From a virus, in IMG/VR virus record IMGVR_UViG_3300045988_020061: a stretch of 39,436 nt of DNA. One strand, written 5' to 3'. Position numbers and translations under genes: made by a program. Below the pieces are notes generated by a model. That model did not search any database. It was not told where the DNA came from and saw nothing but the letters and a program-made list of their open reading frames with translations. Below, in pieces: positions 4,142 to 7,847 of the stretch. How positions within the stretch are numbered: position 1 is the stretch's first letter; each line of letters begins with the position of its first letter.

Positions 4142-4333
4142 TTATTCTCCCTTCTCCAGCATGTCCGCCGCCGCCCGCAGATCATCCGGCAGCATAATTG
4201 GAACATCATAGATATTCGCCTCGGCCCACTCCGCGTATTCGCGCAGCATCGCAATAAGCCCCTCCCGCGTCGGCTTTTCGCCGATCGCGTCAGCCATTGC
4301 GCCCATAAACGTTCGGTCGTCAGTCAGTCCCAT
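4142..4333 (-). CDS. Hypothetical protein
   Basis: ATG (MGLTDDRTF...) preceded by a GGAGG RBS. Confidence 0.45.
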   Translation of the reverse strand: MGLTDDRTFMGAMADAIGEKPTREGLIAMLREYAEWAEANIYDVPIMLPDDLRAAADMLEKGE

Positions 4334-4401
4334 CGCCGCCTCCAAAAAGATCCATCCATTTTTACTCCCCTCACACTGCCACGATCTCGTCTCTTGTCAT
4401 G

Positions 4402-6296
4402 TCATTCCTCCCCAAACCACTTTTTCGTCACGGCGATGGGAAACGGCTCGATCTCGCTTGCCCATCGGGCTGTGCCTTTACCGTGTATGCGCTCCCAGCA
4501 AAGCGGGAATCCGCCTATGCCGTCAAACAGGCTCCCCAGCGTTGCCCGTTCCGGCAGATACCGCGCCATACGCCGCAGCATCCAGTCCCAGAAGGGCAGG
4601 GCGATGGAGTTGCCCAGCGCCTTGTAGCGCGGGCTGTCGCTGGGCTTGTGACGTTTTCCCTTGCCGTCTATCCACTCGCCGATGTCGGTCCATCGGTCCG
4701 GAAAACCTTGCAGCCGTTCACATTCCATCGGCGTCAGGCGGCGCACGACCATGTTCTGCCGGACTGTATTATTCAAGTTCAGGCTTTGCCCGCCGCCTTC
4801 TTTTGCTTGTAGCGTACCGTTTATCTCTCCACCCTCTCGGAAATTGCGGAAGTCTACGGCGCACACAAGGTCTGTGCTGTCCTTAAAGTCCCGTTGCTTG
4901 CAACTGCTTGCAACCTCGGCGGCGCGGTAATCTCCAAAACCATTCATCTGGTATGTAAGCGGCACTTGGTTTCCGCCCGTGCCCATTCTCGCCTGCAATG
5001 CTGGGACTTGCTCCCCGCACTCGCGGATGACGTCACAGGCGTGTGTCATGTCCAGCGCCACCACCGCGGGCTTATTCCCGCCGCACTCGGCGTTCAGTGT
5101 AGGAGACAGTTCCTCTTGATAGCCGATGCTCCGCGCCTGTTCACTATTGCCCAGCTTAAACCCGGCGCACAGTACGCTGTCCCGTGCCATTCCGCCGTTT
5201 TCATTGGCATTCAAACTGTGCCATGCGCCATCCTGATCGTACACCCTTGCACTCTGTGCATCCCAAGGATTCATACACATTACCCCGTGGCGGTCGCCGG
5301 CGGTCAGCGTGGGGGATGGGTCGCCTTCTTTGCCGATGCCAAGACCGTTGCCGCTGCCATCGTGGTTGCGGCTCTCTCCGCCGCCCTGCCATCTGGTGGC
5401 TTTGTCGTTGATGGGGATAGCCGTTGCAAATACGCCATGCGAATGTGCGGCAGAAATGGTGTTCGCCGGGTCACCCGGTTCTCCTACGCCAAATCCTGTT
5501 CCGCGACCTAACGCTTTGCAGCGCGTAGCCACCATCAGGTTAATAGGCGTGGGCGTGAAAATCGTCTGATCGTTGCCCGTACCAAGCGTTCCGCTTTTCT
5601 CCGTCTGCACTAAAGCGCCTTTTCCTCCTCCGTCACAGCCCCCCCCTGATGCGGACTGCATAAGAAGCACCGCTTTCAGCCGCTCCGGCAGATCCTTCCC
5701 CCGCCGCTCCGCTCTCCGCAAAATGCCCTGACACGCTTTCGCGGTCAAATTGTATTTGGGCAGCGGATTCACCTCCAAAATCTGCGACAACCGAGATTCT
5801 TCGGCGACGCTGTGGGGTCCCCAGACGGATAACATTTCCTGTACGGCTGTCTCGGATGGTTTTTCCCCAGTCCTTAGCGTCGTGAGTTCGCCAGGCGATA
5901 GACCACCCATCACCGTCGATGGCTCCTGCTTTTGTCCATTTCCACTTTTCCGGCAGTCCAGATAGAGAAAATCCTGGTTCTGCGATACGCGCAATTTCTT
6001 CCAGCACGGCGTGGAAGTCTTTTCCTCTGTTGCTGCTGAATGCTCCGACAACGTTCTCCCAAACGAGAAACCGAGGTCGGACCATGTTACCTGTCCGTCC
6101 ATTCCGTTTGTCCGCCTCCCTCATTTCTTTTACGATGCGCACCTGCTCCATAAACAAGCCGCTTCGCGCTCCCGCTAAACCGGCGCGTTTCCCAGCGATG
6201 GACAGATCCTGTCTAACAAGGTGAACCACCTGTAATACACCAAATGGGTTCAATCTCTGCCCCATTAATTTTCGTAATATCGCCTAAATGTTTCAC
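4402..6296 (-). pseudogene. C5 cytosine DNA methyltransferase, circularly permuted and split over three reading frames
   Basis: GGAGGTGA RBS plus GTG at 6296 opens MKHLGDITKINGAEIEPIWCITGGSPC, followed by TAG. A frame shifted by 4 nt continues QDLSIAGKRAGL (motif IV), ENV (VI) and PQRRRR (VIII). A third frame carries GGGKGALVQ, RRLTPMECERLQGFPD (IX) and YKALGNSIALP (X). That frame then runs in frame into TLGSLFDGIGGFPL...ASEIEPFPIAV (motifs I-II). Confidence 0.75.
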
Positions 6297-6308: not shown

Positions 6309-6584
6309 CTAATCTCCAAACACAACGCCGCACTCGTCCTTCAGCACGTCCTTGATGTGCTTCCGCTTGATGCGGCCTTCGTTGATCTCCTGTGTGATCT
6401 TCTCAAGACATTTGTACAGGTACGCAATACTGTGGGTGTCGCGGCTGTCAAGCGTCTCCTCCTGGACGTGCCAGCCGCACTTGTCGATCAGTGCCATCGC
6501 CACCATGTCCATGCACTCCTGCGTGCCTCTGCGCTTGCCGTCCATAAAAATCCGGTCGTCCCGGCTCAAATGCTGCTTGCCCAT
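6309..6584 (-). CDS. Hypothetical protein, paralog of 610..903
   Basis: See 610..903. Its stop TAG overlaps the RBS of the methyltransferase. Confidence 0.6.
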   Translation of the reverse strand: MGKQHLSRDDRIFMDGKRRGTQECMDMVAMALIDKCGWHVQEETLDSRDTHSIAYLYKCLEKITQEINEGRIKRKHIKDVLKDECGVVFGD

Positions 6585-6585
6585 G

Positions 6586-7659
6586 TCAATACCTCACCCC
6601 TATGTAGTCCAGCACCCGCGCATAGCCAAGGCCGTCTTTCGTGGGCTTCCACAGCCCGTCCGTGTCAAATGCCCCGCCGCCGATGCAGAACGCATAGTGC
6701 TTCGGGTGCGTCAGTTTCATGCGTTCAAAACGATTCTCGTTCTTTTCGAGGTGCGCACCGAACGCGCAGAACATACATCCGGTTCTCTGACAGCCCGTAC
6801 AGTGCAGTTTGCAGTCGATCAGCGTTGCGCCGTAGTCGTTCTCGCCGTCGCTGGCCACAATGTCACCGTAGACGCTTGCGTAGGGTAGCCCACGAGCCAC
6901 GATAAACCGCAGTACATCCTGCTCCGTCCAAAAGCTCATGGGCTTTCCCATCGGTCGCTTGCCCTCAAAGGCGTTGCAGCCGCTTTTCATCCAATATGTC
7001 ATGCGAAGTCTGCTTTCCTCAGCCATCGTCGCTGTTGTAGCCTGCTGCCCGGTTTTGTGTGCGTAGGTTTTCAGCGGTGACTTTTTCATAATGGCGCAGC
7101 ACTTCGCGGATATATGGAACGGTGCGTACAGCAGAAATTCCCACTTTTCGCAGTTGTAGGCAGACGGTTGTCCATCATTCCTCACAGCCTCCCCGCGCAG
7201 CCGCTTCATTCGTAGGGAGTTTGGGTTGCGCCTTGCGGCAGTAATACAGTCGGCCACCTCTTTGCTCACAATGCTGTACCCGTACTTCGTCACAACCTGC
7301 CGGATGTTCATCTTCGGACGCAGGCGTACAAGGTTGACAGTCACGCGGGGAAACTCCCCCCGCAGCCACGCGGCGTACTCGTTCACGAACTTCTGTATCT
7401 CCGGATATTCCAGCCCCGTATTCACAAACACCAGGTTCAGCTCCCACGGCGGCGTCCTGAAACTCGCCAAATACCGCGCCGCCAAGTACGCCAGCACTGT
7501 GCTGTCCTTGCCACCGGAAAAGCTGACATAGCACCTCCCGCCCCATGCGGTGTACCACTCGTCCAGTTTTTCGTAAGTCAATATCTCCTTGTCCTGCGCG
7601 TCCAGCGCCATGAGCTTTTTTGCCGCATCCCGCGTCAGAGGCGTATTTATCGGCACCAT
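6586..7659 (-). CDS. PAPS reductase / DndC-like ATP-pyrophosphatase family protein
   Basis: SFSGGKDS P-loop motif and a C-terminal Cys cluster CTGCQRTGCMFCAFG. ATG at 7659 overlaps the upstream TGA. Confidence 0.8.
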   Translation of the reverse strand: MVPINTPLTRDAAKKLMALDAQDKEILTYEKLDEWYTAWGGRCYVSFSGGKDSTVLAYLAARYLASFRTPPWELNLVFVNTGLEYPEIQKFVNEYAAWLRGEFPRVTVNLVRLRPKMNIRQVVTKYGYSIVSKEVADCITAARRNPNSLRMKRLRGEAVRNDGQPSAYNCEKWEFLLYAPFHISAKCCAIMKKSPLKTYAHKTGQQATTATMAEESRLRMTYWMKSGCNAFEGKRPMGKPMSFWTEQDVLRFIVARGLPYASVYGDIVASDGENDYGATLIDCKLHCTGCQRTGCMFCAFGAHLEKNENRFERMKLTHPKHYAFCIGGGAFDTDGLWKPTKDGLGYARVLDYIGVRY

Positions 7660-7847
7660 CACTCGCCCTCCTCCAATCTCACCACCTCATAGCAGCCGTA
7701 TCTGCCGCCGTTGCGGAACGCCTTCCGAATCGCAAAACGAACATTCTGATACTTCCGCCCGGACAGCCGCGCCAACTCCGCCGTGGTCGTACCCCACCAA
7801 CGGGGCAGGCGGTACTTGTCCCGCGTCACGATCATGTACACGGTCAT
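7659..7847 (-). CDS. Hypothetical small protein
   Basis: ATG (MTVYMIVTRDKYRLP) lies 5 nt after GGGAGGTG. Confidence 0.5.
   Translation of the reverse strand: MTVYMIVTRDKYRLPRWWGTTTAELARLSGRKYQNVRFAIRKAFRNGGRYGCYEVVRLEEGE

Follow-up and report, generated by a model that had tools for sequence, protein, structure and literature searches.

How can one stretch of DNA read as DNA methyltransferase in two frames at once? The question is raised by a viral sequence of 39,436 nucleotides (IMG/VR record IMGVR_UViG_3300045988_020061), called the window here at its full length, which carries a whole C5 DNA methyltransferase locus at 4402..6287; all locus coordinates in this text are on the minus strand of the window. 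An earlier note, made from the letters alone, had pointed to a region of this locus where two frames both resemble methyltransferase and had linked it to a short insertion between direct repeats. The object of interest is not the insert but a widespread, selected gene embedded in the +1 frame, which encodes a piece of the methyltransferase. Positions 6102-5647 are dual-coding, and we put at about 0.72 the probability that the +1 frame is a separate conserved gene for a piece of an enzyme that is likely assembled from two chains.

Three-frame translation indicated that the enzyme reading passes through three successive frames, A, then B, then C. The two long open reading frames (ORFs) are that of frame B at 5633..6265 (210 amino acids), which is the alpha frame of the enzyme, and that of frame C at 6102-4402 (566 amino acids), which lies in the +1 frame and runs on through the target recognition domain (TRD) and motifs IX, X, I and II. 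Both match Pfam PF00145, at 37.8 and 34.7 bits, respectively, above the gathering threshold of 22 bits. The embedded +1 ORF proper occupies 5647..6102, with an ATG at 6102, a leader of residues 1-101 over motifs VI-VIII and a module of residues 103-149, and the dual-coding stretch comprises about 450 bases. As the earlier note had seen, VADFGG and SQILE are encoded by the same nucleotides, ISVVADFGG at 5797-5771 in frame B and ESRLSQILE at 5799-5773 in frame C, one frame apart. Third-position GC content over 5812-5640 was 0.70 in frame C and 0.46 in frame B, in agreement with the estimate made by hand in that note. When homologs of both translations were sought, frame B matched PF00145 and the frame C peptide gave 694 matches and 4304 cluster representatives. 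Both frames encode methyltransferase sequence under constraint, and the outcome that the note had named as fatal to a double reading, namely one frame lacking both homologs and constraint, was not what we observed.

Five related phage contigs from human faeces (L001-L005) and 80 IMG/VR relatives were retrieved for comparison. The +1 frame was open in 89/89 homologous loci and the enzyme frame likewise contained no stops, whereas the third frame held a mean of 5.9. Synonymous-codon shuffles of the enzyme frame led to an expectation of 3.3 stops in +1, with the frame remaining open in a median of 2.4% of shuffles; against this expectation, all of the testable loci were open (53/53; sum of log10 p = -91). 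The entropy of the codon positions in a codon alignment of 65 loci changed along the gene. Variation was highest at position 3 of the enzyme frame between motif IV and PQRRRR; over LVADFGG..ILF, all three positions were constrained; and over the next ~28 codons, variation peaked at position 1 (1.3-1.6 bits) and was lowest at position 3 (0.3-0.6 bits). High entropy at position 1 together with low entropy at position 3 is the signature of +1 coding and would be expected if strong selection acted on the +1 frame alone there. Furthermore, identity in the module region among 59 non-redundant sequences was 0.75 in the +1 frame (null 0.21) compared to 0.34 in the enzyme frame. The enzyme gene thus contains a second ORF, in an alternative frame, that is kept by selection.

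The two codes have also been parted in nature. The lineage represented by L006 (GCA_963629025.1, ~4150-4450) carries an 84-nt in-frame tandem duplication of the dual-coding segment, in which the enzyme-frame VVDFNGHTAGDILFER survives in copy A and the +1 LSQILEENPDPKYNLTPKAC in copy B (z=14.8 and z=13.1, respectively, to the single-copy reference). This duplication is a natural separation of the two overlapping codes. The conservation might alternatively reflect a nucleic-acid element, either an RNA structure or a DNA site, rather than a second protein. In a blastn comparison of the gut phages with the records of Mycobacterium phage Omega and a Deinococcus plasmid, the matches were almost confined to the dual-coding stretch, as such an element would lead one to expect. 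However, the variation is strictly three-base periodic in the +1 register, the +1 ORF is open against expectation, the duplicated copies keep different readings, and the region has no Rfam match, so that we regard a nucleic-acid element as scarcely credible.

Signals for separate initiation accompany the embedded gene. The +1 frame opens just after a TGA formed from conserved Glu-Met-Arg codons, and an ATG follows within 0-4 codons in most loci. In the window these signals lie at 6115..6123, with the TGA that closes the +1 frame at 6123-6121 and then the Shine-Dalgarno-like GGGAGG at 6120-6115; the Shine-Dalgarno-like sequence is supplied by Lys-Glu-Met-Arg codons (AAGGAGATGAG or GAAATGAGGGAGG). 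A Shine-Dalgarno-like match of at least 4 nt was present in 93% of the loci compared to 20% in the background, and one of at least 5 nt in 67% compared to 4.7%. Judged by these signals, the +1 ORF may be translated from a start of its own, and LSQILEVNPLPK, ACQGILR and DLPER are peptides of its predicted product.

The predicted product comes in two principal forms. In form 1, the majority form (77/89 loci), the module is carried on a small free-standing +1 protein of 130-190 amino acids. In form 2 (12/89 loci, and the window), a shift of frame downstream of the module fuses the +1 ORF with TRD-IX-X, so that alpha and beta genes overlap. The consensus of the +1 reading is FGKTxPEHSAAT...NTGESPN..SRLSQILE..P.KYxLSAKACxGILRRAERRGKxLPxxLKxAL. 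AlphaFold2, used with 68 homologs, predicted a disordered leader (residues 1-100, pLDDT, the per-residue confidence, ~50) and module helices at residues 104-108, 121-134 and 140-151 with a pLDDT of 78-93, which rose to 84-96 within the 566-residue chain; apart from the module and the region of motifs IX-I, that chain was poorly predicted (mean pLDDT 49). Identity, entropy, pLDDT and hhalign together delimit a conserved helical module, SRLSQILEVNPLPKYNLTAKACQGILRRAERRGKDLPERLKAVLLMQ, in the +1 frame at 5656..5796.

In hhalign, the +1 family aligned with the region that follows motif VIII in the Dcm family (probability 77%, E=2e-5, score 41.4), whereas reversed and column-shuffled controls scored at most 15.4 with E of at least 0.18. 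The Dcm segment aligned to the module, l..IL...vd.KYTLs.kLW.YLq.YA.K, stands after motif VIII in one-frame enzymes, and GGGKGALVQ..TL, which comes next after the module in form-2 proteins, is colinear with GNGFGYG..RTL of Dcm. A hidden Markov model of the module matched the +1 frame only, in every locus, and a PHROGs search with the module returned a weak match to a family labelled DNA methyltransferase. The embedded product thus contains a conserved element of the enzyme that the main-frame product lacks. By the published description of the domains of M.HhaI, the module region presumably begins the small DNA-recognition domain. A real but non-catalytic +1 product, such as an independent regulator or a DNA-binding or anti-defence factor overprinted on the gene, would also account for a free-standing protein of 130-190 amino acids in most loci, for a disordered leader joined to a small basic helical module and for a product with no family annotation. 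We nevertheless consider this unlikely, because the module aligns with the in-frame element of Dcm while the controls are negative, shows colinearity with Dcm where form 2 joins it to the TRD, and in the loci examined always accompanied a C5 methyltransferase gene.

If the +1 module is part of the enzyme, how could it join the remainder? The ISVVADFGG strand and the SRLSQILE helix share nucleotides (5799-5771), and one chain therefore cannot hold both. Since no chain carries both strand and helix, two polypeptides are implied, and we infer a two-chain enzyme. Considering these results, we propose the following scenario. Frame B would contribute the part of the catalytic domain that comprises the remainder of motif IV, motifs VI and VIII and the strand that follows, and then a linker. 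Frame C, with its own Shine-Dalgarno-like site and ATG, would contribute a weakly constrained disordered leader and then the three-helix module (residues 103-149), which corresponds to the element that follows motif VIII and precedes the TRD in one-frame Dcm-type enzymes. The enzyme is thus most likely assembled from two chains of one gene, and methylation may require the module. The window represents form 2, in which a run of eight G residues gives rise to alpha (210 amino acids, 6265-5633) and beta (566 amino acids, 6102-4402) with a 470-nt overlap, and the 7-G allele of the same phage represents form 1. Frame B stops at 5633 and the ORF at 6102-4402 carries the TRD and motifs IX and X, which is an alpha/beta split of the M.AquI type. 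C5 methyltransferases split at this interdomain position are known to complement (PMC5944983).

The G8 homopolymer at 5639..5646 is the real junction between frames B and C. With eight G residues, the +1 ORF continues into the TRD; with seven, frame B does so, and YAVRIRGG-CDGGGKGALVQ is read in one frame. The 7-G contigs are otherwise 99.9% identical to the window, the G count being the sole difference, and the 7-G allele is about as common in this phage as the 8-G allele. The 566-residue ORF of the window (8 G) and the 163-residue ORF (7 G) each occur on at least 22 contigs from different samples, and neither allele is therefore an assembly error. At this junction, the relatives have runs of 5-9 G residues, and other lineages with the same TRD type shift, in their form-2 loci, at runs of 7-10.

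The junction between frames A and B is of another kind. Here 4 nt, TAGA (6212..6215), have been inserted into motif IV between its Cys codon and its Gln codon (PC|QDLS). This insertion changes the frame and brings in a stop, so that GGSPC is followed by TAG and QDLS lies in the next frame. In the window, the Pro-Cys-Gln of motif IV with its catalytic Cys is consequently not in one frame with the rest of the enzyme; a peptide spanning the junction would read GGSPCRQDLSIAGK. Among 95 related sequences, 53 have TAGA, 2 have TAGC, and 34 have an intact motif IV. TAGA may be an old null allele spread by recombination, or it may be a recoding site. Within TAGA alleles, the N-terminal 75 nt are nearly invariant, with a mean identity of 97.8%, above either flank, and they are 71% identical to intact alleles. 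Reassignment of TAG to Gln was considered and rejected, the downstream reading in that case being non-methyltransferase sequence. A search for recoding signals at TAGA found no suppressor tRNA or tRNA genes and an RNA fold that was not significant (z=-1.6), and inspection for a re-pairing slippery codon or a landing codon found none.

These observations bear on another explanation, that a single full-length enzyme is produced by programmed ribosomal frameshifting, with a +1 shift past motif VIII and, in form 1, a shift back once the module is complete. The two frames are indeed +1 apart, there are natural ORFs in which frame 0 runs into +1, at several different points, and the stop after the Cys codon at TAGA loosely recalls shifty stops. 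However, neither a slippery site nor a conserved stimulator was found, the fold around TAGA is ordinary, and there were no Rfam matches. The +1 ORF begins 100 codons upstream with a Shine-Dalgarno-like site and an ATG of its own, and no stop interrupts it over this distance. Because the strand and the first helix of the module share nucleotides, one of the two would be missing from a shifted chain, and form 1 would require a shift twice. Programmed frameshifting is thus very improbable.

Could the locus in the window instead be a decaying pseudogene, with TAGA and the extra G inactivating it and the second reading a relic of slipped frames? The catalytic Cys is cut off from the rest by TAGA, frame B ends early in the 8-G allele, neither frame reaches motifs IX/X in ~12-14% of relatives, and the position-3 bias after motif IV is weaker in TAGA alleles (0.52 vs 0.68). 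Decay may hold for activity in this lineage, but it leaves the double reading unexplained, which is kept in loci with a single intact enzyme ORF and across phyla. Furthermore, downstream truncation is no commoner with TAGA (6/44 vs 4/33), though recombination could explain this. As an account of the double reading, decay is in our view quite improbable.

Several observations nevertheless weigh against a separate gene for one chain of the enzyme. Since TAGA parts the catalytic Cys from the rest, the enzyme may be inactive in this lineage, and the difference between seven and eight G residues may be no more than the neutral drift of a dead gene; form 2 is found somewhat more often in alleles with TAGA than in those without it (15/38 vs 5/29, p=0.06). 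The spacing of 12 nt from GGGAGG to the +1 ATG is long. Over the leader (~100 codons), identity in the +1 frame is only 0.37 compared to a null of 0.26, and a similar rise is seen in the +2 frame. The module had no match in Pfam, NCBIfam or PDB sequences, and Foldseek on PDB returned none. For the majority form, action of the module in trans would be required. In addition, natural chimeras switch frames at several other points, and many loci are damaged or variable.

How far does the double reading extend? In a word-indexed database, the +1 peptide matched 694 proteins, nearly all of 147-190 amino acids and with no Pfam domain, and a profile search returned 4304 clusters at 50% identity, many of them of 300-700 amino acids with the +1 domain at residues 1-150. 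At least 574 loci were found in species-representative genomes, mostly Clostridia. The +1 reading is open and recognisable in the five phage contigs, including L004 and L005, which have an uninterrupted enzyme ORF. It is also open over the module in genes of canonical order, namely gp127 of Mycobacterium phage Omega (L007) and dcm on a plasmid of Deinococcus sp. D7000 (L008). A third arrangement, in which a different G run connects the N-terminal part to the +1 frame, forms clusters with 22-29 members and is present in the cultured Faecalibacterium phage FP_Toutatis (L181, NC_047915, 6463-7874). There, gp14, a 'DNA methyltransferase' of 201 amino acids, consists of motifs III-VI fused at a G run to the +1 frame including the module, and motif VIII through X-I-II lies in the other frame, partly annotated as gp15. 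FP_Toutatis is a possible experimental system. More broadly, this may be a large cross-phylum family of phage and mobile-element C5 methyltransferases that is obligatorily two-chain, in which ~50 nt encode both strand and helix and homopolymers toggle between forms without destroying the enzyme; we hold this wider proposal tentatively, at somewhat below even odds.

Annotation of these loci is uneven. The Omega enzyme is itself split into two annotated coding sequences, gp127 with I-VIII and gp128 with TRD-IX-X. In L006 and L089-L092, the automatic gene calls give the +1 ORF as a domain-less protein and leave the enzyme frame uncalled or truncated around it, and one +1 cluster is deposited in nr as a hypothetical protein; artefacts of this kind are systematic in the annotation of the family. 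One form-2 protein (P0172, 605 amino acids) has an insertion of ~190 residues in motif IX, between RLQGFP and GWTDIG, which by eye reads like an HNH-type homing endonuclease.

What part does the insertion play? The direct repeat CTGGGGA described in the earlier note is present at 5864..5870, where it encodes D-W-G in frame B, and at 5818..5824, where it encodes W-G in frame C. Between the repeats lies an insert of 46 nt (5818..5863), which places 15 extra residues between DWG and TPQRRRR in frame B; its residues read KTIRDSRTGNVIRLG in frame B and KPSETAVQEMLSVWG in frame C. The proposed insertion of 45 or 46 nt is thus real, with a net gain of 45 nt over relatives that do not have it (L002, L146, L149 and others). 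Since the net gain is 45 nt and the insert adds 15 residues in both frames, neither frame is shifted, and the suggestion that removal of 46 nt marks a frame hinge did not stand. Nor is the insert the hinge between the two readings, because the double reading is equally present in homologs that do not carry it, namely L002-L005, Mycobacterium phage Omega and the Deinococcus plasmid dcm. Related phages were checked for the segment, as had been advised, and it was present in 57/90 relatives and also in the distant loci L179 and L180, with both readings about equally conserved, though the events are few. AlphaFold2 predicted the insert as an extra helix (residues 84-93, pLDDT ~70). An origin as a diverged tandem duplication is not supported, the similarity to the next 46 nt outside the 7-mer being no better than in shuffles (p=0.29), and the 7-nt repeat is not statistically special, since 47% of shuffles of the region have at least one 7-mer direct repeat within 60 nt. 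The insert is a side feature, an old indel that both readings keep in frame and conserve. Chance could account for the repeat alone, but by no means for the double reading.

The remaining features of the locus fall into place around the overlap. In frame A, the N-terminal fragment (6213..6287) starts at a GTG at 6287, reads VKHLGDITKINGAEIEPIWCITGGSPC and then TAG, and ends at the catalytic Cys; a ribosome-binding-site-like AGGAGGTGA lies upstream of the GTG. Frame B resumes from 6211 with QDLS (QDLSIAGKR...), the remainder of motif IV, and contains motif VI (ENV) at 6067-6032, motif VIII (TPQRRRR) at 5818-5798 and the strand ISVVADFGG..IQF at 5797-5747. There follows a low-complexity, poorly conserved linker rich in Gly, Ala, Ser and Glu (5746-5663), after which the frame ends with YAVRIRGGL and a stop (5633). 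The region from the TRD (CDGGGKGALVQ...) through the motif II region and the stop after it is all in frame C here (4402..5637), with motif IX at 4743-4696, motif X at 4626-4594, motif I (LGSLFDGIGGFP, FxGxG) at 4539-4504 and the motif II region (WASEIEPFPIAV) at 4464-4429.

The C5 methyltransferase motifs VI, VIII (QxRxR), IX, X and I are thus all present in the window, in the order of a circularly permuted gene. The order is III/IV-VI-VIII-TRD-IX-X-I-II and not the canonical I to X; with its new N-terminus placed between motifs II and III, the gene begins in the motif III/IV region and has I-II behind X. The same permuted order was found in L001-L005, in 42/80 genome loci and in 64/80 IMG/VR loci. 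Upstream, a 358-residue ORF at 6586-7662, on the same strand, adjoins the methyltransferase in all close relatives, with only a 91-residue ORF (6309-6584) in between; its counterpart in related contigs has weak matches to the PAPS-reductase family (PF01507).

In bacteria and phages, long overlaps between genes on one strand with selection on both frames are, to our knowledge, rare, and they are contested. The present locus is a clean, deeply conserved case of dual-frame overlap, with a natural duplication that parts the two readings. Gene callers report the embedded ORF as a hypothetical protein without the enzyme, or the reverse, and thousands of methyltransferases are consequently mis-annotated, either as fragments or as pseudogenes. 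Should the small product be a subunit, predictions of activity and specificity for the family would need both products. The family is widespread in gut phages and is relevant to restriction evasion and to the interpretation of methylomes. With such a subunit, the toggle at the G run would show how an overlapping architecture buffers frameshifts.

How, finally, does this arrangement compare with known systems? In a literature search on the motif sequences and on C5 methyltransferases with overlapping frames, the work on EcoHK31I and AquI was all that came up, and the present arrangement appears to be undescribed in the searchable literature. Motif X stands ahead of motif I here, as it does in M.BssHII, M.Alw26I and other C5 methyltransferases that are circularly permuted in nature. 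However, the gene does not belong to the type H permuted enzymes exemplified by M.BssHII (PMC5944983), because its N-terminus lies between II and III. In Escherichia coli Dcm and its family, the segment after motif VIII matches the +1 module; there the element is in the same frame as motif VIII, ~25 residues downstream, whereas here it is in the +1 frame. The dcm gene also overlaps a +1-frame gene, vsr (annotation of L178), but this overlap is 20 nt only, and vsr encodes a repair enzyme that is no part of the methyltransferase. As in phase-variable methyltransferase genes, a coding G7/G8 tract is polymorphic among otherwise identical genomes and changes the frame; the one-base change here, however, converts a single chain plus small protein into an alpha/beta pair and is not a plain off-switch. 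The 8-G allele of the window splits into two overlapping ORFs at the same interdomain position as M.AquI-type enzymes, but its overlap is 470 nt, its beta ORF starts with a leader of ~100 residues that is out of frame, its split toggles with the length of the G run, and motifs I-II are on beta because the gene is permuted. In M.EcoHK31I, the beta chain, of 61 amino acids, is encoded wholly in another frame inside the alpha gene and supplies motif IX (PMC2836561). The likeness lies in a second C5 methyltransferase polypeptide in an alternative frame that supplies a conserved element of the enzyme; here, however, that element is the module after motif VIII and not motif IX, and the arrangement recurs in thousands of phage and mobile-element genes.

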